This document shows positions 23,697-59,428 of a DNA stretch of 64,000 nucleotides, one piece after another (positions within the stretch are counted from its first letter, which is position 1; the number at the start of each line of letters is the position of its first letter). The notes beneath the pieces were generated by a model. It saw nothing but the letters and a program-made list of their open reading frames with translations. It was not told where the DNA came from and made no database searches. Origin of the DNA: an uncultured Gammaproteobacteria bacterium (lineage in GTDB: Bacteria > Patescibacteriota > Microgenomatia > CAYXHB01 > CAZYTL01); the NCBI GenBank assembly GCA_964650355.1, contig CAZYTL010000001.1, forward strand, positions 4,018 through 68,017, given 5' to 3'. Both the position numbers and the translations under genes were made by a program.

Positions 23697-24068
23697 AAAA
23701 GTTTTGAACCGGGCAGGCTTAATTTAGACATACCGGTTTTTCAGAAAACATACGAGCTCTACAAATTCTTTTACCAACTTGTAGCTCATTTTCCTAAAAA
23801 AGACCGGTATGCTATCGGGCAGAAAATCGAAAATGGGATACTAGGTTTAATTGAGGATATTATCACCGCAAGCCAACTATCGAAGTCTGAAAAAGTGCCT
23901 ACTTTGCAGAACGCTAGTATAAAGCTTGATGTGCTTAAAGTTCTCATACGATGTTGTAAAGATTTAAAGATTATTGATAACAAAAATTACCTCCTACTTG
24001 AGTCAATGCTACAGGAAATAGGTAGGATGCTTGGTGGCTGGATTAAAGCATCTACCTATAACTCCTGA
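23682..24068 (+). CDS. avd: Avd (accessory variability determinant), four-helix-bundle protein
   Basis: 128 aa. FPKKDRYAIGQKIENGILGLIEDIITA and the C-terminal EIGRMLGGWIKA closely resemble the TIGR02436 four-helix-bundle / Bordetella phage Avd pattern (EVGRILGSWIAR). It is encoded divergently from the RT, and the two 5' ends overlap by 15 nt. Confidence 0.75.
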   Translation: MPDSHKSFEPGRLNLDIPVFQKTYELYKFFYQLVAHFPKKDRYAIGQKIENGILGLIEDIITASQLSKSEKVPTLQNASIKLDVLKVLIRCCKDLKIIDNKNYLLLESMLQEIGRMLGGWIKASTYNS

Positions 24069-24108
24069 TTTGATTTGGGGCAGTTTGTTTGTGCAGTCAG
24101 AGATAAGA

Positions 24109-24240
24109 CTACAGTGACACGGAAACCAACGTTGTCATTCGAGTTCGCCGGATGATTCCAATTGGCGTTGGCGGCACCACCATTGTCGGAGTTGCCAACA
24201 ATGACACGGTTAGACTCGCCGTCATCACGTTTCGCATTGC
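24109..24240 (-). repeat. DGR template repeat (TR)
   Basis: About 130-bp near-copy of the target gene's 3' end. On the coding (minus) strand it is adenine-rich (encodes NRVIVGNSDNGGAANANWNHPANSNDNVGFRVTVVL). The ORF 24056..24310 spanning it is regarded as non-coding template. Confidence 0.8.
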
Positions 24241-24611
24241 TTACTTTCTTTCCTGAAAGGGTATTAAACCTTTCATTATTACCACTGGCTTCTTTAACGT
24301 ACAGTTTCAAGCTTTTACTTCTTTACCAAGATTGTCCTTAATTTCTTAAGAACTCTCTCCTGTATTTTATTTGGCTCAGGTTACCCCAAGGCCTTCAAGA
24401 GTAAGCAAGTAGTTTTATCTCTCCTTAGTCAGCACTCTCCTTATAGCCGTAACCACAAGGACTCTGGCCTAGCTCTATAGAAGAGCGACTTTGTGAAATA
24501 CAGGCTTACCCGTATTTTCATTAACAAAATCTAACTTGAAGTATAAAGAAGGAGAGCGTAAAAAATCAAGGGTAAATGCTATTTATAGACTTCATATTGA
24601 AGATTGGTAAT

Positions 24612-24642
24612 TTTTCAAAAAAAGCGACCCGCTTCGCGGGTC
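24612..24642 (-). terminator. GC-rich hairpin / rho-independent terminator just 3' of the VR
   Basis: gacccgc-ttc-gcgggtc forms a 7-bp GC stem. On the minus strand it is followed by gcttttttttgaaaa. It lies about 50 nt beyond the target gene stop. Confidence 0.6.
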
Positions 24643-24688
24643 AAGGGACCAAGAATCAAGAAACCAAAAGAACCAATAATTTAAGAGA

Positions 24689-26632
24689 TCAAGTTCCAAG
24701 AACTACAGTGACACGGAAACCAACGTCGTCAGACGAGTACGCCGGAGGAGCCCAAAAGGCGTAGGCGGCACCACCACAGTCGGAGTCGCCAACAACGACA
24801 CGGCGAGACCCGCCGTCACCACGCGCTTCAGTATTAGTCCACTCGTATGTGTTGGTAGAACCCCAACCCTCACGATTTGCCAATAAATTCCATTCAACAG
24901 CTTCAAGCATCCTTACATCGGCTGATGATGGTAAACCAATTTCACTAAGAAGTTCACGTTTATTGTTTTCAATAGCTCTGTGTGCATCGTCCCAGGAAAC
25001 ATTAAAACGGTCATCAATCCCTAGTCCTTCACTTACTGGCGTTCTATCATAGTGTTCACCATAAGAAGGTTTTTGCATGGTTTCTACAGCCACCCATGTA
25101 CCTGGTAATTGAGGAAGCTCCATTCTGCCATCTTTTGCTAATCCCCAGAACCATTCTTCAAGGTTTCTTCCAACTCTATGATCTTCTCTTTCCTCGCTGG
25201 ACAAAGTTTCATATCTACGCCAGTTCGGATAACGACGTTGGATTTCATCCAAGAACCTCTCCTGGCCGTTTCTCTGGAGTTCATCCAAAATGCCAATATC
25301 AAGTTTAGGGATATATCTTAACTCAAATCCGAGACGTTCAAGATTTCTTTGAACCTCAGGAGTAACTTCTGCAGGTAGTGGTGGAACTTCTACATTTGTA
25401 CCTAAAGCTTCATTCCAAGCATCTTGCTCCTGAGATACTTCAACCGTTTCCCTTTGTCTCTCGGGAACAGCAGTCGAGCTTCGATCAAAACCACGTCTAG
25501 GAGAAACATTTTGAGGTGCAACATATTCTACGTGGCGAATCAATTCTTCAAGCTTTTGTTTGTCAACATCAGAATCAAGTTTATTTGAATAGTAATAACG
25601 GAGAGCAGCTTGAAAAGTTTCGTTGATATCACCACTATAAAACCTGAGAATAAAATCTCTAACCCTTCTGGGTTCCATACGGTCGTCATACGTAAAGGGT
25701 TGAGGTTGATCGGCAGCTATTCTTCTACCCTTAACCAGCTCTTTTGCAGCCTTATGAAATTCTTTGTATTTTCCTAAAATTGAATCTATCCCTGGAATTT
25801 CCTGTAGCTGCTCTGGTTGAAGAGCGTAGTCTTGAGAAACCAAGAAATCTTCCGGCGAGACACCTTCTTCCTGAGGAGCTAAGGTGAATAGAGCATCAGT
25901 TGAATAAGAAAATGTATCATCAGGTAACTCAGAAGGAGCTTTGAGATATACCCAACGCCTTAACTGTGCAGGATCTAGTGGTTCACGACCAAAATATCCT
26001 TTCCCGGGGGGATTCATAAGAGCAACTACTTTGGTAGTTTCTTTACTAACAGGAATCGACTCTGATGCATCTTCCGATAAAACAACTGACTCTCCACGAT
26101 TAATTGCATCTAAGACTTCGTGAAGTCTGATTACAATATTTGGAGCAGCTGAATTAAATTCATCCAAAATAATTACCTTGACCTTACCGTCTTCTTGCCT
26201 CAAACCAGAAGTAACTTTTCCGTCAGCGAATATATACTCAGGATCATCTGCACTTCTTTTGTCCGGATTGGGGATATATCTGCCCATTAGATCCTCAACA
26301 TCGGTTGCTCCGTTTAAATTAGCGTAATGTACTTCCCAACCCAAATCTGCCGCCATTTTTCTAACAGTAGTAGTTTTTCCTATGCTGGTTCCACCCTCGA
26401 TTAATATCGGATCTCCCTGTAGCCAGCTGACGGCTATATCCTTTTGCAGACCAAGTGAAAATTTATCATTAATATAGTCAGCGTATTGTTCACGGCTAGG
26501 TACAAAATGCCCCCCATCATTTTCAGCTTTGGGTAAGCGGACACCTAAGTAGGCGACAGTGTCATGACTCTCCTCAACAGGATATTCTGGTGGTGGCGTA
26601 AATTGGTGTCTTTCCATAGATTCGTCTGGCAT
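24689..26632 (-). CDS. DGR target protein: MoxR-like AAA+ ATPase with C-terminal C-type-lectin/FGE-like variable domain
   Basis: Walker A ILIEGGTSIGKTTTV, Walker B KVIILDEFN, sensor-1 VVALMNP, and RR Arg finger. The C-terminal ...SRRVVVGDSDCGGAAYAFWAPPAYSSDDVGFRVTVVLGT has the CLec-type VR signature ending GFRV. Confidence 0.75.
   Translation of the reverse strand: MPDESMERHQFTPPPEYPVEESHDTVAYLGVRLPKAENDGGHFVPSREQYADYINDKFSLGLQKDIAVSWLQGDPILIEGGTSIGKTTTVRKMAADLGWEVHYANLNGATDVEDLMGRYIPNPDKRSADDPEYIFADGKVTSGLRQEDGKVKVIILDEFNSAAPNIVIRLHEVLDAINRGESVVLSEDASESIPVSKETTKVVALMNPPGKGYFGREPLDPAQLRRWVYLKAPSELPDDTFSYSTDALFTLAPQEEGVSPEDFLVSQDYALQPEQLQEIPGIDSILGKYKEFHKAAKELVKGRRIAADQPQPFTYDDRMEPRRVRDFILRFYSGDINETFQAALRYYYSNKLDSDVDKQKLEELIRHVEYVAPQNVSPRRGFDRSSTAVPERQRETVEVSQEQDAWNEALGTNVEVPPLPAEVTPEVQRNLERLGFELRYIPKLDIGILDELQRNGQERFLDEIQRRYPNWRRYETLSSEEREDHRVGRNLEEWFWGLAKDGRMELPQLPGTWVAVETMQKPSYGEHYDRTPVSEGLGIDDRFNVSWDDAHRAIENNKRELLSEIGLPSSADVRMLEAVEWNLLANREGWGSTNTYEWTNTEARGDGGSRRVVVGDSDCGGAAYAFWAPPAYSSDDVGFRVTVVLGT
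24703..24834 (-). repeat. DGR variable repeat (VR) at 3' end of target gene
   Basis: Aligns base-for-base with the TR. Every mismatch (about two dozen) falls where the TR coding strand has A (plus-strand T), for example TR AAC codons becoming S/R/D/C/Y/F/P codons. An identical 3' block (cgttggtttccgtgtcactgtag) acts as an IMH-like end. Confidence 0.8.
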
Positions 26633-26640
26633 AGTTTTTC

Positions 26641-27048
26641 TTAGCTTTGATATGTAATACCTGCTATTTCAAGAATCCTAAAACCTGATTCTTGGGTTTT
26701 CTTAAGAGCAGCTTTAGTTAATACATAAATAATTGTAACGCCTTTATAAATTGGTGTTACCATCTGAGATTTCAGATTGAACTTATCATAAATCTCAACC
26801 TGGCCTGTGGGGTACTGTACCGCAAAATCATATAGGTCTTTAGGCAAAACATCTTTAATCACCACAAAAGACTTAGAAGCTTTTTCAACTTGTTTAAATA
26901 AATCTGATGTATCAACTGCTTGTCTGAACTCGCCTTCACTCAATTTTTTTATAAAATCCTCAAGCTCATTTTCGTCCTTGGCGATCATGAGTGAAACCTC
27001 TTTTTGTGAATTGGCGAATTTTAGAAAATCTTTTATCGTATTTGTCAT
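26641..27048 (-). CDS. hypothetical protein between the AAA+ and vWA genes
   Basis: 135-aa ORF packed tightly between the two genes. Confidence 0.35.
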   Translation of the reverse strand: MTNTIKDFLKFANSQKEVSLMIAKDENELEDFIKKLSEGEFRQAVDTSDLFKQVEKASKSFVVIKDVLPKDLYDFAVQYPTGQVEIYDKFNLKSQMVTPIYKGVTIIYVLTKAALKKTQESGFRILEIAGITYQS

Positions 27049-27065
27049 ATATTATTCATAGTATA

Positions 27066-29162
27066 CTAAAAAGTGTCGTAATTGGCGACCACTTCTCTGA
27101 TAACGTCTGCTAATTTATCGGACATTTCCCTCACTCCTATATTTGCCACACTATTTGGATAATATCTGCCTACGTGATCTGTGCCGGGACCAATGCCTAA
27201 CCCTATCAATTTCTGATCTGTATTTTGCATTATTTGATCAACTGTTTTACCTAGCTCGAATTCCGGTCCGGAATGAGCGCTTGATTCTTCAGGAAGACCA
27301 TCAGAAAGAACAAACAGGAATTTTTCTGCTGATTTTTGACGGGCCAAACGTTCCGATGCTTGTTGAACAGCCCAACCGTCATCATTGTAAGCTGCAGCAG
27401 AGCTGTCTACCTCCTGGAGCATACCTCCCATATGTTCCCTAACTTCACGACCCATATCGTGTCCGAAAGGTTGATATTCATATAACCTATCATTAAAACC
27501 CAAAACCTCCGTGTTGATTGAAAGCCTATTAAGAACTTCTGCTAAGACAATTGCAGCTCTAAAAGTTTCCCTTATTTTTTGACCTCTCATTGAACCGGAT
27601 AAATCAACCAACAGACTAATTGCATAATCTTTCTCCTGAGGAATTTCCCGTTTCTGCCAGGCTCTACTTTCAACAGGTGAAATACCTAATGCTTTTTCCT
27701 GCATTCTTCGTTTAATGTCGATACGTTTTCCTGACTTAAAACCTGTCTGCCACTTCTGAGCTCGTCTGGCTACAAAAATTTCTCTCAAATCCGCTTCTAG
27801 AGTGTCAATAAGCGGGAGAACATCCCTTCGGTATTCTTCATAGATATTTTCATCTCCGCGCAAAGCTTTTTCAATTAAATCCTTAAATCGCTTCTGATCC
27901 GGAGTTTGCTCTGGTTTCGTTTTCCCTTCCTGTTCATCGTCTGAGGCTGAATCCCTATCTCGTTTTGTTCCTTCTACGGCTTCTCCACGCTGAGCCTGCT
28001 TTTCCGGATTGTCTGAAAGTTTGCCTTCGAATTCTTCATTAACTTCTCGCTCAAACCCCTGTAATGCTTGCTGTGCTTTCTCTGCCAGCTCACGTTTGAC
28101 ATCTTCAGGCAAAGAGTCAATATAGTCTTTTATTTTTTGTTTTAATCCCTCAGACAAAGAGTCAAGATCAATAGCTCTGGGTTGCCCGCTACCTTCCTGC
28201 TCAGCTTGGTTGCCTTGCTGAGCATTTTCAATAGCTTCTTCAAGCTCTTTTTGTTCTTCTTCTGTTAGTGAATCTGCCAACTCCTGAGGGAGTCCTTGTT
28301 GTCCTTCTCCTTCGCCACCTCCCTGCATATCCTCCATAAATTCCTGCATTTCCTGATCTTGCATATCCTGTTCAACCAACTTCTGAAATTCCGGCCATAC
28401 CTCATCCCGATTAATTTCATAGCTGACATTAGCGTACCTTCTGATTAAGTCTTCACTTTCATCTGCTTCGTGTTTTGAAGGGTATCGTAGCCAGGAATCT
28501 CTGGCACTTTCTAGCGTTTGACTAACCACCGCTTTTACTTCTTCCGGCAAATCTTCACTCAGTGCCCCAAATTCTTTTCCCTGAGTTTCTCCATACCACT
28601 GGCGTATATACTCAAAACCTGCTTGCATGAATCGAGGAGTATACCCCAGCTGGTCGTGAGCTTTTTCTTTAGCCTTGCCTTCAAAATCCAGATCTTCCTG
28701 ATATGCAATATCCATCTGATCACGAAAGCGGGGGTAAGCTTCTGCCACAAAATTATTTGTTCGAGGATCTTCAATGGCATTCATCATAAAAGAGAACCCT
28801 GGTTGTCTCCAGGTTTCTGTGGGAATGTCCTCAGTTCGAGATACACGCCTGTGACCGCCCTCATGAGAAATAACAAAACGTAAGTAGTCCATATCCTTCT
28901 GAAGCAGGTCTTGGGGGTCGATGCGGATTTTATTTTGTCCAAAATCCCAATGCCAGCCGGCACCTGGTTGGTTAAGCTCGACAGGTATCTGAAAATCTTT
29001 ACCTATAAAATAGGCCAATGAAGAAAGAATTTGTTGCCTATGCTGAATTTCCTGCTGTTGGTCAGGAGAAAAATGTCCGAGTATCTCGGTTTGATTATCT
29101 TTACGTAGAGCGTGTAGGGTTGTCTGTGATTCTCGTTCCATAAAATCAGTTTTTTGTTCCAT
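27066..29162 (-). CDS. vWA-domain protein with N-terminal HExxH zincin-like motif (partner of the MoxR-like ATPase)
   Basis: C-terminal MIDAS DLSGSM (DxSxS) plus FVLSDG and a downstream Thr/Asp pattern of vWA domains. N-terminal FVISHEGGHRR is an HExxH motif. Long acidic coiled-coil linker. Confidence 0.7.
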   Translation of the reverse strand: MEQKTDFMERESQTTLHALRKDNQTEILGHFSPDQQQEIQHRQQILSSLAYFIGKDFQIPVELNQPGAGWHWDFGQNKIRIDPQDLLQKDMDYLRFVISHEGGHRRVSRTEDIPTETWRQPGFSFMMNAIEDPRTNNFVAEAYPRFRDQMDIAYQEDLDFEGKAKEKAHDQLGYTPRFMQAGFEYIRQWYGETQGKEFGALSEDLPEEVKAVVSQTLESARDSWLRYPSKHEADESEDLIRRYANVSYEINRDEVWPEFQKLVEQDMQDQEMQEFMEDMQGGGEGEGQQGLPQELADSLTEEEQKELEEAIENAQQGNQAEQEGSGQPRAIDLDSLSEGLKQKIKDYIDSLPEDVKRELAEKAQQALQGFEREVNEEFEGKLSDNPEKQAQRGEAVEGTKRDRDSASDDEQEGKTKPEQTPDQKRFKDLIEKALRGDENIYEEYRRDVLPLIDTLEADLREIFVARRAQKWQTGFKSGKRIDIKRRMQEKALGISPVESRAWQKREIPQEKDYAISLLVDLSGSMRGQKIRETFRAAIVLAEVLNRLSINTEVLGFNDRLYEYQPFGHDMGREVREHMGGMLQEVDSSAAAYNDDGWAVQQASERLARQKSAEKFLFVLSDGLPEESSAHSGPEFELGKTVDQIMQNTDQKLIGLGIGPGTDHVGRYYPNSVANIGVREMSDKLADVIREVVANYDTF

Positions 29163-29200
29163 AGATCTCTTAAATTATATAAAAAATCTGTGAAAAAGTC

Positions 29201-30763
29201 TTACAGAAACTGAGAGGTATCAGCATACATATTCATAATTGGTTTTTTGCTTGCCTTGTGCTTTTTCTCCTCCTCAACATTTACAAAATTAATCAAATAA
29301 ATAATTGCTGCCTTGGTGAGGCACATAAGATTAATTGTCTCTTGGAAGAGAGTATCAGAATCAATGTTGTGCTTATCTGTTTCATCATCAACGCTTGTTA
29401 TTAATGAATCGAAGACTATTAGTCGTCTGTGGGTAAGTGCATTTCTGATTTGTTTTATCTTTTGATATCTATTGAGTTTGAAATCCCGGTATATGTCATA
29501 TAAAGCATAAAGGCTTAAATTATCAGAATTGAGTATTTCTTTCCTGATAACTTCTTTATGTTCCCAGACTGAGGCTGTGGAAAAGTAGATATTATTTTCC
29601 TTAAGCCTCAGATCGTAATAGTCGTTAATAAATACAGCAATTTTGTCCAATATATTGAAAGCATCCTTAAATGCCGATTTTAATAGACCTACATAAAGAT
29701 TGAATTGTGAGTAGTCCAGGGCGTATACATAGCTGGTTCTCTTGCTAATACTGTCGAAAGTCTTTTGTTTGTATTGAGATTGAACCAGATTGAGCCTGGC
29801 TACTGCGTAATCTTCTTTAATTTGATTGAGTTGTTTGGCGAAATTATAGAATGTGTCGTTGTCGTCAATTTTTGTGATCAGCCTGATAAATACTGGGTCC
29901 TCAATTGCGGCTTCACAAAAATCATCATGGATATGGAAATTGAGAAATAGCTTTTCCCTGCTGCAGAAATCTAAGTAATACTGTTCGAATTTAGTCAACC
30001 CTTTTGTTTTATATTTGGGATGCTTGATACTTTTCTTAAGTAATGATTTATCTTGAAAAAGAGATTCGATGTAATCAAGTTCGCGCTCGAAAGCTTTTTT
30101 AGCATCAGTACCTCCAACTTGTACCAGCTTCGGATCGTCTAAAACTGATTTGATATCTTGGTAAGCGGTTACATATATTGAAGCCCGATATTTGTCAGAG
30201 ATATCAGCAAATGCCCGAAGTGCTTTGGCTCTGTTTGCTACTGCCATTGGGAAGTTTTTGTTCAAGTCGAGCGCTTCGTTGTAGGCAGTTATGGCTTCAA
30301 TCCCTCGACCTAATGTGTCTAAACAGTTGCCTAGATTAACTAACACTTGTGTCTTTAGGTTTGGGTCATCAAATTCATTATTTGTCGCTTGAATTAAATG
30401 TTGTTTGGCTTGTAATAGATTTGTACTTTGCGGTATTGTGCGATCTACAGCGCCACCCATTCTTTCTGTAAGCTGATATAAACTTGTATACCCATTTGCC
30501 AGACAATAGTGAAGGTAAGCCTTCGTCTTGCCATTCTTTGTTTGTATTAGTGTGGATTCACCAAAATCAATACCTTCTCTTATGATATTTTCGTCCCTGA
30601 GATCGTTTCCTATATCAACTAAAAAGCCAGGTTTATAAAATATCAGTCTCTTGTCATCAGGGTTTTCCTTTTCGAATTCAGTTAATTTTTCAAGTGCCTT
30701 TTTTGCTTCTCCTGAATTGATAAGTAGTGAGATTGTTTGGAATGAGAGAGTCTTTTTATCCAT
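29201..30763 (-). CDS. TPR-repeat protein with C-terminal HEPN-like (Rx4H) domain, Abi/defence-like
   Basis: The N-terminal half reads as TPR-like helical repeats (AITAYNEALDLNKNFPMAVANRAKAL...). The C-terminal region contains IRNALTHRR (R-x4-H HEPN catalytic motif). Confidence 0.5.
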   Translation of the reverse strand: MDKKTLSFQTISLLINSGEAKKALEKLTEFEKENPDDKRLIFYKPGFLVDIGNDLRDENIIREGIDFGESTLIQTKNGKTKAYLHYCLANGYTSLYQLTERMGGAVDRTIPQSTNLLQAKQHLIQATNNEFDDPNLKTQVLVNLGNCLDTLGRGIEAITAYNEALDLNKNFPMAVANRAKALRAFADISDKYRASIYVTAYQDIKSVLDDPKLVQVGGTDAKKAFERELDYIESLFQDKSLLKKSIKHPKYKTKGLTKFEQYYLDFCSREKLFLNFHIHDDFCEAAIEDPVFIRLITKIDDNDTFYNFAKQLNQIKEDYAVARLNLVQSQYKQKTFDSISKRTSYVYALDYSQFNLYVGLLKSAFKDAFNILDKIAVFINDYYDLRLKENNIYFSTASVWEHKEVIRKEILNSDNLSLYALYDIYRDFKLNRYQKIKQIRNALTHRRLIVFDSLITSVDDETDKHNIDSDTLFQETINLMCLTKAAIIYLINFVNVEEEKKHKASKKPIMNMYADTSQFL

Positions 30764-30764
30764 G

Positions 30765-31016
30765 TTATTTATTCAGGCTTTTATAGCAATCATTTGTAAA
30801 CTTAGTTTCATCATCGATTAGCTTCTTCCAAGAGTCAGAGCCAAAATCGGTTATCCCCAACTCTTTTTTACCAATTTCAAGATAAGCCCCACCAAGTTCT
30901 GCACAGTTGGTGGGTTTGGAGCCAATGCCAATTTTGTAGCCAACAAACAGACAAATAACTGAAAATACAAAGGCCAGTAATATTATCACTGGGAGTTTTA
31001 CTTTTCTTACCTTCAT
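30765..31016 (-). CDS. small single-pass membrane protein coupled to the TPR-HEPN gene
   Basis: N-terminal transmembrane helix (LPVIILLAFVFSVICLFVGY). The stop lies 1 nt from the start of the downstream gene. Confidence 0.4.
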   Translation of the reverse strand: MKVRKVKLPVIILLAFVFSVICLFVGYKIGIGSKPTNCAELGGAYLEIGKKELGITDFGSDSWKKLIDDETKFTNDCYKSLNK

Positions 31017-31059
31017 AACTCAATTATATTCACTCAAGGTGAGAAATCAAAGACAATCG

Positions 31060-32967
31060 CTAGTTAGTAAGCATCTTTCCTAGTCCAGGAATTTTTCCGA
31101 TTAGTTGTCGAATTTTGTTCTTATTCGCTACTAGTGGCTCATTGGTCGTTTCTTTCTGTAAAGTGCCGTTAGAAGGCGACACAGGGGCTACAACTTCTGC
31201 CTCTGTTGATGTTTCATCTGATTTTTCCTGTTTTTCCGTTATTTCCGGACCAAGTAGAATATCGACATACTGGTCAAGGTCTAACTCTTCCAAAATCATC
31301 TTTTGCAAAGCTCGCTTACGAATCAGCCACTGCTTTATACCAATTGGGTCACTTGGGTCCGGCTTGTCCTGGGCAATGAATTTGTCATATAGCAACAATA
31401 TCTGGTTGAGTCTTGCTTGTTTGTCAGGCGGAATTACTGGCTCAACTTCGACAATTGCATCTACGCTAACTTTTTTATCTTCAGATTTAAATTCCTTAAA
31501 ATCAACATTATTTCCTACTATCCTGTAGAGCTTATCCTCGCTGAGGAACTCTCTATTTAACTGGATGAGGATATTAGCCACAGTAGTTAAAGCGTTTGAA
31601 ATATTTTGAGCATTTATGCTTAACCGTAGGTTGCTTTGACCAAGGAGCATTGCAACTTTCCCTAGTGGTTCGCTGGACGACTTTGGTAGCCCCTGCAAAT
31701 ATTCACCTAGCGCCAGAGTCCTCGATATCTCATCTCGCAGCATCTTATCTTCGTTGAGCCCCATCAAACTTATTTCTGGAGGTCGCTCAATAACCACATC
31801 ATCCATTTTTCTGAGCTCCCAAACAGCTCCAGGAGAGAAAATAATGTCATTCTTGGTGATGCCGGTATCTTTACGGATCTTAACTACTGGATCTAGCATC
31901 AGAATTACATCATCCATGCGTTGGTTACGCAGGTCAGCAATCTCCATAATGGTACTTTCAACAGGCTCAACATGACCGGTTGCCCAGAATTCCCAGAGAA
32001 GAGACATATCTGGCAAATCAACAAAGATGTGTCCATTGTTGATATCCAAGTATGGGTTCTCGTCATCCCTAATTACCACTTCACCATTGGCAATAACTAC
32101 CAGTTCATCTTCCTCATAGTCCCAACATTCCCATAACTCCAGTTGCTTCTCTTGATCACTTTTTACAGGCAGGACTTTTTGTTCACCGGTGTCGGCTTTC
32201 TTAAGATCGCCATCAATCTGAGACATTTTTTTGGTGTTTATTTCATATCGTTCTTTTTTCCAATCCTCAACATTCTTGGGGTTACAAAATTCAAGATTCT
32301 TGTATATATGGTTTTCTCCACGGTTTTCTTCTTCTTTTGTAATTTTTTCCTTAGTTTTAACTATCCTGTGGATTAGCCAAGGGCACCCATCCTGCAGATC
32401 CTCTGTTTCTGGTGCCGGCAGGAAGTCCCACAAGTCGCATAGAATCATGGTTGGATCGTCATATAAGACTTTGAATGTTTCATCCGATTTTTTCCTGCTT
32501 TGAACTTTCCAGGCTAATTTAACAATTCCGTTTCCATACAATACTGATGACTCAATCCAGTGGGGAAGCTTTTTGGCTAGTTCAATAATGTCAAAGTCAT
32601 AGTTGACCAAGTCATCCCAAGAAGATAATGCTCTTGACTCTACATCTCTCTTGTCTCTGGGAATGACTCGTGTTTTGCGTTTAGCAGTCGCTAGTCTAGA
32701 TACAACCGTCTTGACGATTTCAAATGCTATTGGGGGCATGAGGCGAGTGTTGTAGGCGTAGTTTTGTTTGTGCTGATAAGCCCGGTAGAGCTTATACATC
32801 CTCAGCCACTTAGCTTGGTATGGATCACGAAACTCTTTTGCCCGCTTAAATCGAGCTTTCCATTTTTTGAGGAGTTTTTCATCACGTTCCGTAGGTTCGT
32901 ATCTTTTTCCTGGTGAAATTTTTGTTTCTTTGACTTTAGGGTTTGGCATAGTAATTTTGGCCAACAA
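31060..32967 (-). CDS. portal (head-tail connector) protein
   Basis: 635 aa, upstream of the head module. The N-terminal RAKEFRDPYQAKWLRMYKLYRAYQ region is interpreted as portal-like, and the C-terminus is acidic. The assignment rests on size and position and is not backed by a motif. Confidence 0.45.
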   Translation of the reverse strand: MLAKITMPNPKVKETKISPGKRYEPTERDEKLLKKWKARFKRAKEFRDPYQAKWLRMYKLYRAYQHKQNYAYNTRLMPPIAFEIVKTVVSRLATAKRKTRVIPRDKRDVESRALSSWDDLVNYDFDIIELAKKLPHWIESSVLYGNGIVKLAWKVQSRKKSDETFKVLYDDPTMILCDLWDFLPAPETEDLQDGCPWLIHRIVKTKEKITKEEENRGENHIYKNLEFCNPKNVEDWKKERYEINTKKMSQIDGDLKKADTGEQKVLPVKSDQEKQLELWECWDYEEDELVVIANGEVVIRDDENPYLDINNGHIFVDLPDMSLLWEFWATGHVEPVESTIMEIADLRNQRMDDVILMLDPVVKIRKDTGITKNDIIFSPGAVWELRKMDDVVIERPPEISLMGLNEDKMLRDEISRTLALGEYLQGLPKSSSEPLGKVAMLLGQSNLRLSINAQNISNALTTVANILIQLNREFLSEDKLYRIVGNNVDFKEFKSEDKKVSVDAIVEVEPVIPPDKQARLNQILLLYDKFIAQDKPDPSDPIGIKQWLIRKRALQKMILEELDLDQYVDILLGPEITEKQEKSDETSTEAEVVAPVSPSNGTLQKETTNEPLVANKNKIRQLIGKIPGLGKMLTN

Positions 32968-33173: not shown

Positions 33174-33386
33174 TTGTTAAGTAAATTTATCAACAGTAAT
33201 ACTATGGAAGAACTTCTAACGATAGGCGAAGCCGCTCAGATTTTGAAGGTTCATCCCAACACTTTACGTTTGTGGGATAAAAACGGCATCTTGAAAGCTG
33301 TGAGAATTGGTGTGAAAAAAACTCGCAGATACAGAAAAGAGGATATCGAGAAGTTTATTAAAGAAGGTAAAAATAATAAGGAATAA
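33174..33386 (+). CDS. excisionase/MerR-like HTH DNA-binding protein
   Basis: LTIGEAAQILKVHPNTLRLWDKNGILKAVRIG is the MerR/excisionase-family HTH. The likely start is the ATG at 33204 (MEELLTIGEA...). It is a paralogue of ORF 48019..48213. Confidence 0.6.
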   Translation: MLSKFINSNTMEELLTIGEAAQILKVHPNTLRLWDKNGILKAVRIGVKKTRRYRKEDIEKFIKEGKNNKE

Positions 33387-33391
33387 AAACT

Positions 33392-35614
33392 ATGACTCAA
33401 GCTCAAAAACAGCAACTAGAAAAACAACTTTGGGCAGTTGCCAATGTTCTTCGAGGCAAGATGAATGCTGACGAATACAAGAACTATATCTTGGGGTTTA
33501 TTTTTTACAAATATCTTTCAGAAAAACTTGCTCGATACATAGATGAGAAACTATTATCCAACGAGAAGTTTGATTTTTCCGAAATTGATGAATCTAGCAA
33601 AGATGGTCAAAAAATCATTGATGCTGTCAAGAAAGCCTGTATTGATCACTTAGGATTTTTCCTTAAACCTAAGGACCTTTTCTCTTATCTCGTAAAGAAA
33701 GGTAATGGAGAAATTAAGAGTCAAAGCACCTTTATCCTAGAAAACCTTAAAGACGTTCTTAACTCCATTGAACAAACTTCTATGGGAACAGCTAGTGAAG
33801 ATGATTTCAAAGGACTTTTTGACGACGTGGACTTAACTTCATCCAAATTAGGTAAATCGGAAAACAAGAAAAATCAAGTAATTGTGGAAGTATTGACACT
33901 ACTTGGCGCTATTGATTTTAAGCTAGAAGATTCTAAAAGTGATTTACTTGGTGATGCTTATGAATACTTGATCGGAGAATTCGCAGCCGGAGCGGGTAAA
34001 AAAGGTGGAGAGTTCTACACTCCAGCCCAAGTTTCTAGATTGCTTTCTAAGATAGTGATTCGCGGCAAGAAAAAAATTAAATCTGTTTACGATCCTACTT
34101 GTGGATCAGGCTCTCTTCTACTTCGCATAGGCGAGTATGTAGATGTAAAGGCTTATTATGGGCAAGAACTAAACCCTACAACCTACAACTTAGCTCGAAT
34201 GAACATGATCTTGCATGGAGTCCACTTTGATGATTTCAGTATTCGCCAAGGAGATACATTAACCGACGACATGCACTTAGATTTAAAGGCAGAAGCAGTT
34301 GTTGCTAATCCTCCCTTCTCAGCTGACTGGAAGGGTGATAAAGACCCAGCTTTGGTGCACGATGAGAGATATTCTCAATACGGAAGATTGGCTCCAAAAA
34401 GCAAAGCAGATTATGCTTTTGTTACGCACATGCTACATCATTTATCTGATAACGGAATAATGGCTGTGGTTTTACCTCATGGTGCGCTATTCAGGAGTGG
34501 AGCTGAAGAACAGATTCGTAAATATATAATCGAAAAACAGAATTACCTTGATGCGGTAATAGGTTTGCCACCAAATATTTTTTATGGAACAAAGAAACCT
34601 TTTGCAATATTAGTATTTAAAAAATGTAGAAGCGAAGATCAAGACATATTTTTTATTGATGGTTCAAACGAGTATGTTGTTGGAGAAAAAAAGAACCTGA
34701 TGACAGATCAAAACATTAATAAAATATTTAACATATATGAAAATCGCCAAGAAATCGATGAATTTTCTTATAGAGCAAAATTATCTGAGGTAAAGAAAAA
34801 TAATTTTGACCTTTATATTTCTCGATATGTAAAAATAATTGAAAAAGAACAAGAAATCTCAATCGCTGAGGTTGCAAAAAAACTGTATAGACTTCAAGAG
34901 CTAGAACAACCCCATCAAGAAAGAGTTAAAAAATATTGCGATAAATTAGGATGTCCGCCTCCAATTGGATCTAATACTCAACTTCTTACCGATTATAAGC
35001 GTGGTTTAATTCAGAAGCTTTTTTCAAGAGAAATTAGGTTTAGAGATAAAAAACAGAAAGATTTTCCAGATTGGACAATCTATAAACTCGAGAATGTTTT
35101 ACACGAACATGGAAAAAAAAGTACCGGAAAAGAAAAAGTGTACTCTGTTTCTGTGCATAAAGGTTTGGTTGACCAGATTGAACATCTTGGAAGAAGTTAT
35201 GCAGCTAAATCAACAAGCCACTACAATTTAGTAAAACCAGGAGATGTTGTATACACAAAAAGTCCAACTGGTGATTTCCCTCTAGGAATTATAAAACAAA
35301 GCAAAATTAGTAAGACAGTCATAGTCTCTCCGCTTTACGGAGTATTTACCCCCAAAACATTTGATTTGGGATTTATTCTAGATGCCTATTTTGAATCAAC
35401 TGCCAATACGAACAACTACCTATCACCCATTGTTCATAAAGGTGCAAAAAACACCATTGCAATTACTAACAGCACTTTTTTGTCTGGCGAACTATCACTG
35501 CCTGTTTCTGAAGAAGAAATACAAATAGTTGCAGACTTTATAAGGTCTATTGACCAGATAATTCTCTTAAAGAGCGGATCTTTTTCGCAAAATGTCAAAA
35601 GTCACGAAGTTTAA
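33392..35614 (+). CDS. hsdM: Type I restriction-modification HsdM methyltransferase fused to a single-TRD HsdS specificity module
   Basis: HsdM motifs: SAM-binding VYDPTCGSGSLLL and catalytic VVANPPFS (NPPF). The C-terminal ~250 aa has HsdS features: conserved boundary DFPDWTIYKLENV, one target-recognition domain, and the terminal LPVSEEEIQIVADFIRSIDQII repeat. Confidence 0.75.
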   Translation: MTQAQKQQLEKQLWAVANVLRGKMNADEYKNYILGFIFYKYLSEKLARYIDEKLLSNEKFDFSEIDESSKDGQKIIDAVKKACIDHLGFFLKPKDLFSYLVKKGNGEIKSQSTFILENLKDVLNSIEQTSMGTASEDDFKGLFDDVDLTSSKLGKSENKKNQVIVEVLTLLGAIDFKLEDSKSDLLGDAYEYLIGEFAAGAGKKGGEFYTPAQVSRLLSKIVIRGKKKIKSVYDPTCGSGSLLLRIGEYVDVKAYYGQELNPTTYNLARMNMILHGVHFDDFSIRQGDTLTDDMHLDLKAEAVVANPPFSADWKGDKDPALVHDERYSQYGRLAPKSKADYAFVTHMLHHLSDNGIMAVVLPHGALFRSGAEEQIRKYIIEKQNYLDAVIGLPPNIFYGTKKPFAILVFKKCRSEDQDIFFIDGSNEYVVGEKKNLMTDQNINKIFNIYENRQEIDEFSYRAKLSEVKKNNFDLYISRYVKIIEKEQEISIAEVAKKLYRLQELEQPHQERVKKYCDKLGCPPPIGSNTQLLTDYKRGLIQKLFSREIRFRDKKQKDFPDWTIYKLENVLHEHGKKSTGKEKVYSVSVHKGLVDQIEHLGRSYAAKSTSHYNLVKPGDVVYTKSPTGDFPLGIIKQSKISKTVIVSPLYGVFTPKTFDLGFILDAYFESTANTNNYLSPIVHKGAKNTIAITNSTFLSGELSLPVSEEEIQIVADFIRSIDQIILLKSGSFSQNVKSHEV

Positions 35615-35620
35615 ATACAT

Positions 35621-38416
35621 ATGGCACAATCAGAACTACAACTAGAAAACGAATTAATATCTCAACTTAATACATTAGGTTTTGATATTGTTTCTATTCC
35701 CAACGTTGATTCGCTTCATCAGAATTTACAATCTCAACTTGAAAAATTCAATCAAACTAAATTCTCTGATCTTGAATTCTCTCGAATTTTAAACTACTTA
35801 ACTAAGAGTGATCGTTTTCAAAAAGCAAAAACTTTGCGAGATAGATTTGCCCTAAAGCGCGATGATGAAAGCACTTTGTGGGTACGCTTTTTCAACATGG
35901 ATAAGTGGTGTAAGAACGAATATCAAGTTACACATCAGGTTACCCAAGCCGGAAGATATGAGAATCGTTACGACGTAACTTTGCTTATTAACGGTTTGCC
36001 ATTGGTTCAGATTGAACTCAAACGTCGTGGTGTTGAAATGAAAGAAGCGTTTAATCAAATTCAACGCTATCATCGTCATTCTTTCACAGGGACCCTGTTT
36101 GAATATATTCAAGTATTTGTAATTTCTAATGGCGTTAACACTAAATACTTTTCGAATAATCCTAGACAATCATTTGAACAAACATTTTTTTGGACAGATG
36201 TAAACAATAAAAAAATAACTCAACTTAATGAGTTTGCTGATGTGTTTTTAGAAAAATGCTCTTTGTCAGCAATGATCGCTGAATATATTGTTCTTCATGA
36301 ATCACTTAAGATTCCAATGATCTTACGTCCCTATCAGTATTTTGCAGTTAAAGCTATTGAACAACGAGTAAAAGAATCAGATAAAAATGGTTACATTTGG
36401 CACACCACTGGATCTGGAAAAACTTTAACCTCATATAAGGCGAGCCAGATTCTCTCTCAGCTACCGGAAATTAAGAAGGTTTTATTCGTTGTTGATCGAA
36501 AAGATTTAGACATTCAGACCACCAAAGAATTTAATTACTTCTCTGATGGCTCAGTAGATGGTACCGATAACACACGAAATTTAGTTGCTCAACTTAAAGA
36601 TCCAAATCGAAAACTCATAGTTACTACCATTCAAAAACTAGATAGGGCTGTTTCGAGAGAATCATATATTCATCAATTTGAAGCTCTCCAAAATGAAAAA
36701 CTGGTCATTATTTTTGATGAATGTCACCGAAGTCAATTTGGATTAACACATTCAAGAATTAAAGGTGCTTTAAAAAATGCTCAGTTGTTTGGTTTCACTG
36801 GTACGCCAATCTTTGCAGACAACAATGTCGGTGGTGTAACTACCAAAGATGTGTTTGGCGAGTGTCTGCACAAGTACATTATCACTCATGCCATTGATGA
36901 TAATAATGTGCTCGGTTTTGCAGTTGAGTATGTTGGTAAATATAAGAAAAAAGATCAAGATACTTTGGACGCAGATATTTTTGCTGAAACTTTAGTAGAA
37001 GGTATTAATACCAAAGAAGTTCTTGAAAGCGATGAGCGTCTAGAAAAAATTACTGAGTACATTCTTCAAGATTGGAAACGAAAAACTAAAAAAGGTAAAT
37101 TCAACGCAATTTTTGCCACAAGCAATATTAGTGTTTTGAAAAGATACTACAAGTTGTTTGCTGACCAAAAACCTGACGATTTCAAAGTAGCGACAATATT
37201 TACTTATCAAGCCAATGAAGATGATAGCTCCGACATGCTTGACGTTGATATTTTTGCTGGTGAAGGTACTACCGGTAACCAACATTCTAGAGATTTCTTA
37301 GAGTCATGCATAAAAGATTACAACACTCTCTATGGAACAAATTATTCAACTGACCGCTTCTACGACTATTATCGAGATTTACAAAAACGAATTAAAGAAA
37401 AGCAAGTTGATTTAGTTATTGTGGTGAACATGTTCCTAACAGGTTTTGATAGTCCGAGACTCAATACCTTGTTCGTAGATAAAAACCTAAGATATCACGG
37501 TCTAATCCAAGCGTACTCACGTACTAACCGTCTACTTAATTCAGACAAACCACATGGGAATATTGTTTCCTTTAGGAATCTAAAACTAGCCACTGATAAA
37601 GCATTAGCATTGTTTGGTGATGAGAACGCTAAAGAAGTTGTTTTCAAAAAACCGTATGAGATTCAGAAAAAAGAATTTGAACAAAAATTATCAGAAGTAA
37701 AGAAAAAGGTTCCTACTGTAGATTCAGTTGATGATTTGCAGGGAGAAGAAGAAAAGGCTTCATTTGTTAAAAGCTTTAGAGATCTTTTGAGAATTAAATC
37801 CTCTCTAGAAACTTTTGCTGAATTTTCATTTGATGACTTAGGTATATCTGAGCAAGAATTTTATGATTACCAAAGCAAATATCTCGACATTCATGAAGAG
37901 CGCAAAAAACACGATCCTGAAAAGGAATCTATATTAGATCAAATCGACTTTGAGCTTGAACTTACAGTAAGAGATGTTGTTGATTTTGACTATATTATTC
38001 AACTTATTGCTGGGTTGAAAGACATTAGCTCAGATGCTGTTAGAGAAAAGAAGACTGAAGAAATCTTGAAGCTATTTGACCGTGATGTAAAACTTCGCAA
38101 GAAGAAAGAGCTAATCAAGAAATTTATTGAAGAAAATCTTCCCAAGGTTGGTAAAGATGGAAACGTCGAAGAAGCCTTTGAGAAATTCTGGTCAAGTGAA
38201 AGATCTACTGCTTTAAAAGATGTGGCTCAGACTGAAAATATTCCTCTAGAAAAATTTGAACAAGTTATTGGTGAGTACTTGTATACCCAAAAACTTCCAC
38301 ATAGTCAGGACATTATTGATCTACTCCCAGAAGCTCCCAAGATCTTAGAGCGTCAAGGAATCATCGATAGGATTAAAAATGCAATTGAAAATATAGTGGA
38401 TATTTTTGAATGGTAA
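35621..38416 (+). CDS. hsdR: Type I restriction enzyme HsdR (endonuclease/helicase subunit)
   Basis: N-terminal PD-(D/E)xK (DVTLLINGLPLVQIELK), helicase motif I HTTGSGKT, and motif II IIFDECHRS (DECH box). Confidence 0.8.
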   Translation: MAQSELQLENELISQLNTLGFDIVSIPNVDSLHQNLQSQLEKFNQTKFSDLEFSRILNYLTKSDRFQKAKTLRDRFALKRDDESTLWVRFFNMDKWCKNEYQVTHQVTQAGRYENRYDVTLLINGLPLVQIELKRRGVEMKEAFNQIQRYHRHSFTGTLFEYIQVFVISNGVNTKYFSNNPRQSFEQTFFWTDVNNKKITQLNEFADVFLEKCSLSAMIAEYIVLHESLKIPMILRPYQYFAVKAIEQRVKESDKNGYIWHTTGSGKTLTSYKASQILSQLPEIKKVLFVVDRKDLDIQTTKEFNYFSDGSVDGTDNTRNLVAQLKDPNRKLIVTTIQKLDRAVSRESYIHQFEALQNEKLVIIFDECHRSQFGLTHSRIKGALKNAQLFGFTGTPIFADNNVGGVTTKDVFGECLHKYIITHAIDDNNVLGFAVEYVGKYKKKDQDTLDADIFAETLVEGINTKEVLESDERLEKITEYILQDWKRKTKKGKFNAIFATSNISVLKRYYKLFADQKPDDFKVATIFTYQANEDDSSDMLDVDIFAGEGTTGNQHSRDFLESCIKDYNTLYGTNYSTDRFYDYYRDLQKRIKEKQVDLVIVVNMFLTGFDSPRLNTLFVDKNLRYHGLIQAYSRTNRLLNSDKPHGNIVSFRNLKLATDKALALFGDENAKEVVFKKPYEIQKKEFEQKLSEVKKKVPTVDSVDDLQGEEEKASFVKSFRDLLRIKSSLETFAEFSFDDLGISEQEFYDYQSKYLDIHEERKKHDPEKESILDQIDFELELTVRDVVDFDYIIQLIAGLKDISSDAVREKKTEEILKLFDRDVKLRKKKELIKKFIEENLPKVGKDGNVEEAFEKFWSSERSTALKDVAQTENIPLEKFEQVIGEYLYTQKLPHSQDIIDLLPEAPKILERQGIIDRIKNAIENIVDIFEW

Positions 38417-39602: not shown

Positions 39603-39611
39603 TCCTAAAAC

Positions 39612-42985: not shown

Positions 42986-43021
42986 CTGTAATAAGTCATG
43001 ATTGAACTTAAAATAAAATAA

Positions 43022-46564: not shown

Positions 46565-46570
46565 ATATTG

Positions 46571-47284: not shown

Positions 47285-47287
47285 AAA

Positions 47288-58997: not shown

Positions 58998-58999
58998 GG

Positions 59000-59311: not shown

Positions 59312-59428
59312 GTATTTTGTTTGTTTTTAAATCGAGGACCATATAGACCTTATTACCATCTTGGTCATTTTTAGTACCTTCAAAATGATATTTAGGATTT
59401 TTGGAAACTGATCCTTTTTGTCCTGGCT

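Follow-up and report, generated by a model that had tools for sequence, protein, structure and literature searches.

A portal-adjacent TPR-HEPN gene of the LA2681-like family in a phage of CPR/Patescibacteria: cargo with a candidate role in abortive infection or exclusion

What is a protein that joins TPR-like repeats to a HEPN domain doing among the structural genes of a phage, and does it depend on the small membrane protein encoded just upstream? These questions are raised by two genes of the window, by which we mean the whole 64,000-nucleotide stretch of DNA that was analysed. An earlier note, made from the letters of this DNA, had described a 520-aa open reading frame containing the peptide IRNALTHRR and had placed it between the portal gene and the vWA/AAA+ unit. 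Both the reading frame and the peptide are present, and the coordinates of the SU10-type portal, vWA/CobT_C and AAA_5 genes confirm the position (Table 1). Sequencing run SRR14802573 contains this exact locus.

Table 1. Coordinates of the TPR-HEPN locus and of related features in the window.
Feature	Position	Strand	Remark
AAA_5 protein	24689-26632	(-)	
vWA/CobT_C protein	27066-29162	(-)	
TPR-HEPN protein, 520 aa	29201-30763	(-)	ATG start; full-length LA2681-like HEPN family member
HEPN_LA2681 domain, residues 305-497	29273..29851	(-)	Pfam PF18733 match
RNALTH, Rx4H catalytic-type motif, R440...H445	29429..29446	(-)	Read from sequence
TPR-like alpha-solenoid, N-terminal, residues 1-245, 11 helices	30029..30763	(-)	Proposed sensor/regulatory domain
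TM83, 83-aa single-pass membrane protein	30765-31016	(-)	ATG ORF; hydropathy, charge
TM helix of TM83, ~residues 8-30	30927-30995	(-)	Hydropathy
Promoter-like site TTGATT-16 nt-TATAAT, between portal stop and TM83 ATG	31023..31050	(-)	Sigma-70-type consensus match
SU10-type portal	31060-32967	(-)	
AbiU2-family HEPN gene	47288-48022		In window

The 520-aa protein was compared with family profiles, as had been proposed, and the LA2681-like family, one of those named in that proposal, was matched over its full length. Pfam model PF18733 (HEPN_LA2681) gave an E value of 1.8e-31 and 109.6 bits against a cut-off of 27, with profile positions 7-204 of 204 covered by residues 305-497. Within this domain, residues 439-447 read IRNALTHRR, and nowhere except at RNALTH (440-445) does the protein match Rx4-6H. 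Given that ~0.36 Rx4H motifs are expected from the composition of the protein, the motif alone could be due to chance; it becomes significant through the full-profile match and through the invariance of R440 and H445, which were retained throughout alignment A1 (29 sequences) and alignment A2 (41 sequences, 25-67% identity). K362, D373 and K374 were likewise invariant, in alignments down to 25% identity. The protein has 404 homologues, most of which are ~500-545 aa long and colinear with it; the TPR-HEPN family forms 217 clusters at 50% identity (E<1e-30), and the HEPN family extends over bacteria, archaea, plasmids and phages. Moreover, the gene is under purifying selection, with a dN/dS of 0.11 against a 95%-identical relative (dS was saturated in every pair except the closest one). 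The reading of a TPR protein with an Rx4H HEPN domain was therefore borne out: the protein belongs to the LA2681-like family of the HEPN superfamily and its Rx4H motif is intact. The protein is a putative RNase.

Structure models were examined as well. The protein displays the four-helix up-and-down bundle of the HEPN fold, in which R440 lies within a helix (434-443) and H445 follows directly after it; H445 borders a low-confidence stretch (445-459) in the full-length model and is better resolved in the domain model. The possibility that the Rx4H falls in a non-helical region that is not conserved among homologues was checked and does not hold, as the motif is invariant and R440 is helical in a HEPN-fold domain. 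The N-terminal TPR fusion typical of the LA2681-like architecture was also found. We nevertheless speak of a TPR-like solenoid, because TPR repeats were recognised at the level of fold, whereas the Pfam TPR_1/TPR_2 threshold was not reached (best TPR_1 score 24.3 bits versus 27.8, for one repeat at residues 140-171). Among NCBIfam models only TPR_BatC matched, far under threshold, and sequence and profile searches of the PDB returned TPR proteins only, the HEPN half being without any match. The 520-aa protein has neither a signal peptide nor a TM segment.

This architecture was already described computationally in 2013, when Anantharaman, Makarova, Burroughs, Koonin and Aravind reported the LA2681 family as having a conserved Rx4-6H motif and being "fused to TPR" (PMC3710099). 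The window copy, which resembles that family in its full-length HMM match and conserved Rx4H, is a further example of a catalogued family; taken singly, the finding annotates a known family correctly and does not introduce a new type of system. What differs is the setting: the family has hitherto been described in cellular genomes, whereas the window copy lies in a cargo hotspot of CPR phages. In the literature searched, no RNase, toxicity or phage-defence assay of any LA2681-family member was found; an E. coli member of the family is listed as a novel defence gene predicted by DefensePredictor, without validation (PMC13092281, supplement). Neither the 520-aa nor the 83-aa protein matched PADLOC-DB 2.0, even at E<=1, or PHROGs. 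The Pfam Abi models did not match the 520-aa protein, a search of the BFVD viral structures returned zero matches at E<=0.001, and a GenBank phage collection (50,697 records) held a single match, distant and unannotated.

How the gene is distributed among related phages was then informative about its status. In L049 and L051-L053, the portal gene is followed by p132-p278-MCP and the slot is empty; in L045, L048 and L056, different cargo occupies the portal-adjacent slot; and in L014, L076 and L077, the HEPN gene sits in the terminase-portal hotspot. These comparisons bear out the earlier note's description of non-structural cargo. The HEPN gene is a "moron", cargo that moves horizontally and here occupies a hotspot next to the portal of an SU10-like phage or prophage whose hosts are the ultra-small CPR/Patescibacteria. 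Judged from sequence, it has the makings of a phage moron, being a variable accessory gene between conserved phage genes and associated with a promoter-like element. Since relatives do without the gene and it also turns up outside phages, a structural or morphogenetic role was rejected. A functional link to the adjoining DGR or to the vWA/AAA+ unit, with which the gene co-occurs in many loci, was considered; the HEPN gene, however, is found without them in L028/L043 and L034, and with a different DGR in L002 and L030.

Gene neighbourhoods outside the phage clade were surveyed in a census of 148 neighbours at 56 non-redundant loci. Because the metagenome scan was queried with alignment A1, the census is biased to homologues of ~44% identity or more, and it consists of short metagenomic contigs. 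The commonest neighbour was a type IIG RM enzyme (Pfam counts: Eco57I 7, N6_Mtase 7 and MmeI_Mtase 6; PADLOC REase_MTase_IIG in 9 of the 148, best E 8e-235). An RM gene was found directly upstream and on the same strand in L018, L080, L130, L090 and L038, with edge fragments or remnants of such genes in L091, L103 and L019; when only loci with >2.5 kb of upstream sequence were counted, 6 of 29 had an RM gene directly upstream. The RM proteins of the HEPN-adjacent loci share only 27-49% identity. Other homologues lie in a T4SS/relaxase conjugative element, beside a serine recombinase, or in neighbourhoods containing a tyrosine integrase with a BsuBI/PstI RM system, GmrSD, or UvrD with HsdM, and plasmid homologues adjoin helicases, toxins and WYL proteins. 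The family is thus associated with defence genes and mobile elements (type IIG RM, integrases, recombinases, T4SS and plasmids), as judged without a formal background model.

These neighbourhoods make a role in abortive infection or exclusion plausible, and we give about an even chance to the reading that the gene is a stand-alone abortive-infection or exclusion gene in which a TPR sensor governs a HEPN RNase. HEPN domains cleave RNA internally without needing a metal, and they do so as dimers with a composite active site. In such a scheme, the 520-aa protein would be a cytoplasmic sensor and effector in a single polypeptide, its TPR solenoid fused to the LA2681-type HEPN domain. The TPR domain would keep the RNase inactive until an invader protein or a peptide signal was bound or, alternatively, until a partner such as a restriction enzyme was disturbed. 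Once activated, the HEPN domains would cut cellular RNA and translation would stop, an arrest that may protect the lysogen population and the resident prophage and exclude competing mobile elements. TM83 is, on this reading, an envelope protein in its own right, confined to the phage lineage and not required by the HEPN protein. We infer both the triggering through the TPR domain and the defence phenotype. Such a system would consist of one gene, which could be cloned by itself, with R440 and H445 as its key residues.

The sensor of PrrC and RloC, two anticodon nucleases, is an ABC-type ATPase and their RM partner is of type Ic, whereas the sensor of the TPR-HEPN proteins is a TPR solenoid and their partner is of type IIG; in the window, no RM gene adjoins the TPR-HEPN gene on the same strand. 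The likeness lies in the arrangement. PrrC and RloC are HEPN-type RNases fused to a sensor and encoded beside RM genes; both have an entry in Table 1 of PMC3710099. TPR-HEPN homologues, for their part, immediately follow type IIG RM genes of diverse sequence at no fewer than 5 to 8 independent loci. Such recurrent operonic adjacency suggests a latent RNase that backs up restriction. By analogy, we tentatively propose that the LA2681-type TPR-HEPN protein may be a stand-alone "guardian" RNase that in cellular genomes backs up type IIG RM as PrrC does EcoprrI, and that CPR phages may have captured it as a leaderless, self-promoted moron that excludes competitors, beside TM83 as a separate envelope exclusion protein. 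The RNase would fire when the TPR domain detected an anti-restriction factor or another invader protein. If true, a widespread HEPN family would receive its first functional assignment, and a defence gene would be seen at work among CPR bacteria, whose phage-host systems are poorly understood.

The place of the gene in the phage genome also invites an opposite interpretation. Located among the late/structural genes, between portal and capsid and on their strand, the HEPN gene has no terminator-like site 3' of it, so that its expression may belong to the lytic cycle of the phage itself and not to lysogeny. Transcription might read through from the portal operon, and in L034 the gene has been kept beside a portal that has diverged to 75% identity. 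The product could accordingly be an offensive, self-serving RNase that does not protect a lysogen but degrades host or competitor RNA (for shut-off or nucleotide scavenging) or inactivates an RNA-based host defence. We regard this as unlikely. Many phages of the same family lack the gene or carry unrelated cargo in the slot, and the gene is served by a conserved promoter-like element of a kind that the structural genes lack. Moreover, the protein family also occurs on plasmids, in a conjugative element and behind type IIG RM genes, settings outside phages in which an anti-host role would make no sense.

The promoter-like element lies upstream of TM83. Its -10 hexamer ends 6 nt from the TM83 ATG, and there is no Shine-Dalgarno sequence. 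Among the sigma-70-type matches across 26.5-33.5 kb it is in the top two (10/12), although such matches are not in excess there (17 observed versus 17.4 in shuffled sequence) and CPR promoters in general are uncharacterised. The two hexamers, TTGATT and TATAAT, are kept in L002, L010, L027, L028, L029, L031 and L048, and also in L011, L013 and L030, where TM83 has been lost; their spacing is conserved (TTGATT-N16/17-TATAAT) and the surrounding bases vary. A perfect TATAAT within 60 nt of the start was found for 3 of the 49 ORFs of the window, all of them in cargo units, and the structural genes carry AAGGAGGTGA. The conservation of the site is consistent with a promoter function, and TM83 and the HEPN gene appear to be co-transcribed from this element of their own.

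TM83 itself was confirmed as the 83-aa single-pass membrane protein claimed 1 nt upstream, a single base separating its stop from the 520-aa ATG (TAA-C-ATG). Its Kyte-Doolittle 19-residue maximum is 2.9 (residues 8-26) and its N-terminal tail is basic (MKVRKVK, charge +4). The C-terminal domain of ~50 aa, which is predicted to be extracytoplasmic, is conserved and contains C38 and C77; in alignment A4, C38 is invariant and C77 near-invariant, and the TM segment is variable. The homologues form 25 clusters, all within this phage lineage, and are 71-88 aa long except for one 50-aa entry; the Pfam models gave no match to the family. The gene has a dN/dS of 0.12-0.16. A 100%-identical cluster came from the same 23-kb contig and added nothing new. 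A lipoprotein was considered and rejected on reading the sequence, as S-V-I-C, the residues up to C22, is unlike a lipobox.

TM83 had been called a membrane peptide coupled to the HEPN protein. Locally this stands, in that the two genes share a promoter-like site and the stop-1nt-ATG junction is kept in every locus that has both; obligate pairing does not, as each gene is found alone. The HEPN gene occurs without TM83 in L011/L072, L013, L030/L075 and L034, with intergenic gaps of <110 nt, and TM83 occurs without the HEPN gene in L045 and L048, where other cargo follows. TM83 is therefore a neighbour in an apparently shared transcription unit and not an obligate partner, and this natural deletion series shows that it is dispensable for the HEPN gene. 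A two-component module, in which TM83 would sense an envelope event (DNA injection or membrane damage) and signal to, or restrain, the TPR-HEPN protein in the manner of membrane-protein-plus-effector Abi/Sie pairs or of a toxin-antitoxin pair, consequently seems quite improbable to us. It would accord with the conserved junction and common promoter-like site, with purifying selection on both genes, with the conservation of the short cytoplasmic N-tail of TM83 (MKVR.V) and the persistence of a mini-ORF for that tail in deletion variants, and with L065, where a small membrane protein other than TM83, but resembling it in its C...DFG...W...C pattern, precedes the HEPN gene. However, besides the loci at which either gene stands alone, TM83 is limited to one phage lineage, and no conserved small membrane partner was seen at any of the 56 loci outside phages. 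Furthermore, it is the extracytoplasmic side of the membrane on which the conserved portion of TM83 is predicted to lie, and the HEPN protein lacks both a signal peptide and a TM segment.

Many HEPN proteins are not nucleases, among them the C-terminal domains of KNTases and sacsin. That the 520-aa protein is a non-catalytic RNA- or protein-binding regulator or scaffold, using the HEPN fold for binding, is nonetheless very improbable, since the Rx4H dyad, the hallmark of HEPN families of the nuclease type, does not vary anywhere in the family, nor do three further charged residues; the motif is given as conserved in the LA2681 family by Anantharaman et al. (PMC3710099), and the genomic surroundings, with RM genes, integrases and mobile elements, are those typically seen for toxins and defence genes.

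The preferred reading, a stand-alone sensor-effector RNase, was also set against other known systems. Lactococcal AbiD/F, AbiJ, AbiU2 and AbiV are similar in being HEPN effectors encoded by single genes or small operons on mobile elements, and AbiU2 has been reported in operons with Sel1 (TPR-like) repeat proteins (PMC3710099); they belong, however, to other HEPN families, and TPR-HEPN proteins unite repeats and HEPN domain in one polypeptide, with no separate gene for the repeats. HEPN-MNT type II/VII toxin-antitoxin systems differ more, as the TPR-HEPN protein is about four times larger, carries a TPR domain, and has neither an MNT nor a conserved antitoxin-like neighbour: no MNT antitoxin gene is present at the window locus, which is flanked by the portal, TM83 and vWA genes, and none of the 25 Pfam families most often assigned to the 148 neighbours is a nucleotidyltransferase family. 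Unlike Avs and bacterial NLR-like STAND proteins, the TPR-HEPN protein has no STAND/NACHT NTPase between sensor and effector, and its fold matches to STAND proteins and RRNPP receptors (PlcR, phage Rap) are generic for TPRs and not specific.

Prophage exclusion genes such as lambda rexAB and P2 old/tin offer a last comparison. Hotspots of phage morons and exclusion genes have been described (PMC9122126), and the TPR-HEPN gene resembles their content in being accessory, in having its own promoter-like element, in lying between structural genes, in being present or absent among close relatives, and in having further defence cargo around it; it differs in host clade (CPR/Patescibacteria) and in gene content, and exclusion at the TPR-HEPN locus is putative. 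With a widespread family that has kept its catalytic-type residues, the locus and its relatives offer concrete leads, and they document dense, exchangeable defence cargo around the portal gene in CPR phages. Other defence cargo of the window, in addition to the AbiU2-family gene in Table 1, comprises a Type I RM system, SIR2-HerA and a Cas4-like gene.

The two ORFs described in the earlier note, the 520-aa TPR-HEPN gene and the 83-aa membrane-protein gene directly 5′ of it (TM83), were both found among the six-frame ORFs and in the raw sequence, where a single base separates the TM83 stop codon from the ATG of the 520-aa ORF. Because about 0.36 Rx4-6H matches are expected in the 520-aa protein from composition, its sole such match (RNALTH, within IRNALTHRR at residues 439-447) is not evidence by itself. 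When the protein was compared with Pfam, HEPN_LA2681 (PF18733) matched residues 305-497 over nearly the whole profile (E 1.8e-31; 109.6 bits, threshold 27), the related family HEPN_Cthe2314 matched more weakly, and TPR matches at residues 139-171 fell below threshold. The domain assignment of the earlier note was correct to the level of the family. Searching 5.8 billion proteins yielded 404 homologues; of the 120 matches listed, most were about 500-545 aa long, colinear and 50-95% identical. When 1.8 billion cluster representatives were searched exhaustively with HMMER, 217 clusters had E<1e-30, most of them full-length. R440 and H445 were invariant in a 29-sequence alignment of homologues and also across 41 representatives of 25-67% identity, in which the only other invariant residues were G52, N143 and R153 (TPR half) and K362, D373 and K374 (HEPN half). 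The full-length AlphaFold2 model was all-helical (pLDDT 77, pTM 0.81): residues 3-234 form 11 helices, and helix 434-443 contains R440. The motif thus does not fall in a non-conserved, non-helical region, which the earlier note had named as counting against its claim. Mean pairwise identity was 51% in the TPR half versus 67% in the HEPN half, making the TPR half the more variable, and the dN/dS of the gene against a 95%-identical relative (0.11) indicated purifying selection. These data show that a TPR-like solenoid is joined in one chain to a domain of HEPN fold whose Rx4H is invariant. The C-terminal tail (..DTSQFL, residues 512-520) was also conserved, Q518 being invariant and D515 and T516 nearly so in the 29-sequence alignment; it is preceded by a lysine-rich linker, is predicted to be disordered (pLDDT <50), and might serve for docking or autoinhibition.

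Among the papers searched, the one found to name LA2681 was the 2013 census of HEPN proteins by Anantharaman et al. (PMC3710099); in the DefensePredictor supplementary tables (PMC13092281), an E. coli LA2681-family protein appears among predicted, unvalidated novel defence genes. No experiments on the family turned up in the literature searched, and PADLOC (2023) contained no model matching the TPR-HEPN protein; the protein is therefore a further member of an already known, but only computationally defined, family.

Coordinates of features in the window
Feature	Position	Strand	Basis or remark
1800-aa protein	4522-9924	(-)	LPD38 'large polyvalent protein' domain
Major capsid protein	18812-19978	(-)	
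DGR, complete	22659-24860		RVT_1 E 5e-29, bAvd E 8e-24
DGR RT	22659-23696	(-)	
DGR bAvd	23682-24068	(+)	
DGR TR	about 24040-24330	(-)	
DGR VR	about 24640-24860	(-)	
Three-gene unit	24689-29162	(-)	conserved; vWA/CobT_C (698 aa), 135-aa protein, AAA_5 ATPase with DGR VR
TPR-HEPN ORF, 520 aa	29201-30763	(-)	six-frame ORFs, raw sequence
Conserved ..DTSQFL tail	29204-29230	(-)	
TM83 ORF, 83 aa	30765-31016	(-)	six-frame ORFs, raw sequence
Promoter-like element TTGATT-16-TATAAT	31050-31023	(-)	6 nt before TM83 ATG
Start-context examples	31017-31050, 29163-29200, 23640-23681		
SU10-type portal gene	31060-32967	(-)	upstream of TM83-HEPN; PF23899, PHROG portal/adaptor families
Defence island, low GC (0.30-0.35)	33174-44113	(+)	between terminase-side genes and portal
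Trio with AbiU2-type gene	44186-48022	(-)	
AbiU2-type HEPN ORF, 244 aa	47288-48022	(-)	HEPN_AbiU2 (PF18734, E 9e-14)
Terminase	55208-56764	(-)	
DNA methylase cluster	57338-61991	(-)	ParB_N-N6_N4_Mtase, C-5 cytosine methylase
DUF3800 protein	63357-63992	(+)	window edge

The HEPN gene had been described as non-structural cargo, and a comparison of phages related through the portal gene bore this out. In L049 and L051-L053 the portal is followed directly by the p132, p278 and capsid genes, leaving the slot empty; in L045, L048 and L056 the portal-downstream slot holds other cargo (including a C5 methylase with a HerA-like ATPase, a 1407-aa HEAT-like protein with an S26 peptidase, and a P-type ATPase with a phosphatase); and in L014, L076 and L077 the HEPN gene sits in the terminase-portal hotspot instead. 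L034, with a portal of only 75% identity, has a HEPN gene (58% identical) that immediately follows the portal and stands alone between it and the capsid module. Given such varied contents, the gene is non-structural and exchangeable. In a 364-kb contig of a Nomurabacteria MAG (L009, 4691-7701), the portal is cut down to its last 197 codons, with a large serine-recombinase-like gene just 5′ of it and an intact block of TM83, HEPN gene and diversity-generating retroelement (DGR); this may be a prophage remnant that retained its cargo.

Outside this phage clade, homologues were found in a conjugative element, between its RadC/relaxase and TrbC/TraC/TraG genes; beside a serine recombinase; overlapping a type IIG restriction-modification (RM) gene at its end; behind a tyrosine integrase and ahead of a BsuBI/PstI RM system; close to GmrSD; in methanogens, close to UvrD and HsdM; and on 22 plasmids among helicases, polymorphic toxins, WYL and PD-(D/E)XK proteins. 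A census combining a metagenome scan with earlier loci gave 93 loci with a homologue, 66 of them non-redundant at 90% identity (10 from the phage clade of Patescibacteria (CPR), 56 from outside it). When the 148 nearest genes (two per side) of these 56 loci were scanned in one batch, the commonest Pfam families were Eco57I (7), N6_Mtase (7), MmeI_Mtase (6) and TaqI_C (5), followed by Resolvase/Recombinase (3), HSDR_N (3), Phage_integrase (2) and UvrD (2); the top PADLOC family was REase_MTase_IIG (9 members, best E 8e-235), and no conserved antitoxin-like or small membrane partner emerged. A type IIG RM gene lies immediately 5′ on the same strand in five loci (L018, L080, L130, L090, L038), is partial at the contig edge in L091 and L103, and is a remnant in L019; such a gene was present in 6 of the 29 loci having more than 2.5 kb of upstream sequence. 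The mutual identity of these RM proteins is only 27-49%, which argues for recurrent linkage and not a single clone. The gene is mobile on its own, occurring in phages and plasmids, a conjugative element and RM islands.

TM83 has an N-terminal tail of charge +4 and a strongly hydrophobic segment (residues 8-26, Kyte-Doolittle 2.9), and its C-terminal half is polar. The TM83 family is confined to this phage lineage and comprises just 25 clusters, all of 71-88 aa with one 50-aa exception and none of them matching Pfam. The TM segment is variable and the C-terminal domain (~50 residues) strongly conserved, with C38 invariant and C77 near-invariant; dN/dS is 0.12-0.16. By the positive-inside rule, this domain is predicted to lie outside the cell, and hydropathy analysis found no hydrophobic segment in the HEPN protein. 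The TAA/TAG-N-ATG junction is kept wherever the two genes occur together. The HEPN gene occurs without TM83 in L011/L072, L013 and L030/L075, where the portal-HEPN spacer (<110 nt) retains the promoter-like element and the first TM83 codons (ATGAAAGTA...), indicating that TM83 was deleted and the HEPN gene kept; TM83 is wholly absent from L034, and L045 and L048 have TM83 without the HEPN gene. On this evidence, we concluded that TM83 is a lineage-specific envelope protein at the promoter-proximal position of the cargo slot, and not a dedicated partner. The "coupled pair" of the earlier note thus survives as a shared transcription unit with a conserved junction, but not as a functional unit. 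In the deletion variants (L011 7924-8000, L013 355-443, L030 7912-8000), the first ~10 codons (MKV...) are left, and the L011 mini-ORF remnant ends TAG-C-ATG before the HEPN gene, so that stop and start are still 1 nt apart. In L065-L067, the space between portal and HEPN gene is occupied not by TM83 but by three further small signal/TM proteins (111, 89 and 123 aa in L065, 5869-6976), the last of which has a C...DFG...W...C pattern in common with TM83; L045 has a 129-aa signal-peptide protein after the portal. Small exported proteins seem to accumulate in the slot next to the portal.

The promoter-like element before TM83 ranks in the top two of the sigma-70-type matches within 7 kb and is kept in all related loci while the bases around it vary; promoter-like matches in total were not above shuffled expectation. 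A perfect TATAAT within 60 nt upstream was found for only 3 of the 49 window ORFs, namely TM83, the vWA gene (17 nt 5′ of its start) and the DGR Avd gene, the three cargo transcription units. Several structural genes carry strong AAGGAGGTGA Shine-Dalgarno ribosome-binding sites. In the three cargo units, the 3′ end of TATAAT lies 6-15 nt before the start, with no Shine-Dalgarno sequence; judged from these consensus matches, the cargo is moron-like in organisation, with probably leaderless or near-leaderless starts.

HEPN endoRNases include Csm6, Cas13, RNase L and PrrC. HEPN domains act as metal-independent endoRNases that are active as dimers and latent via an appended sensor domain or partner (PMC3710099). 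In the TPR-HEPN protein, the TPR domain would be the sensor keeping the RNase latent; an invader-derived protein or peptide binding to it would allow productive HEPN dimerisation and RNA cleavage, and at RM-linked loci lost contact with the RM partner could trigger the HEPN domain likewise. The ensuing translational arrest would amount to abortive infection or exclusion, to the benefit of the resident prophage. This role, for which the earlier note had put the gene forward as a candidate, is well motivated but unproven, and we rate its chances as about even. The main rival, an RNase used by the phage during its own lytic cycle, appears rather unlikely; the gene lies close to the portal gene here, but its homologues are also carried by plasmids and a conjugative element. 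A genuine two-component system with TM83 would fit the conserved junction but is improbable, given that each gene occurs alone. A non-catalytic role, with R440 and H445 both invariant, is more doubtful still. The finding is of value for the leads it offers to experiment, namely the catalytic residues, the linkage to type IIG RM genes and the fact that TM83 is dispensable.

The window is from an SU10-like phage or prophage of CPR bacteria; the portal, amidase and tail genes are on the minus strand. The MAGs in which close relatives occur are labelled Woesebacteria, Nomurabacteria, Gottesmanbacteria and Patescibacteria, and other close relatives are IMG/VR viral contigs of 54-62 kb. Two cargo regions flank the portal, an opposite-strand island upstream and the TM83-HEPN side downstream. 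The island encodes HTH_17/MerR, a type I RM system (HsdR, and an HsdM whose long C-terminal extension is without annotation), SIR2_2 with a HerA/DUF87 ATPase, a DUF2779/Cas4-like gene and a trypsin-like protease; in L002, the relative of 95% identity, this slot is occupied instead by DUF4365, a PLD-SNF2 helicase and a type IIG methylase-endonuclease. The locus shows how much exchangeable defence cargo these phages carry. A second HEPN gene, of the AbiU2 family, is part of a trio whose other members (237 and 792 aa) had no Pfam match. On the downstream side, TM83-HEPN comes first, then the vWA/CobT_C, 135-aa and AAA_5 unit, and then the DGR, whose TR and VR differ at template adenines only. The VR forms the CLec/FGE-like tail at the C-terminus of the 647-aa AAA_5 (MoxR/CobS-like) ATPase, an unusual DGR target. 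Across L010, L011, L013, L023, L027, L029, L031 and L064-L067, the three-gene unit is 79-92% (vWA), 67-85% (135-aa) and 79-94% (AAA_5) identical; in other relatives a different DGR, whose target is a 1530-aa FGE-sulfatase/fn3 protein, takes its place (L002).
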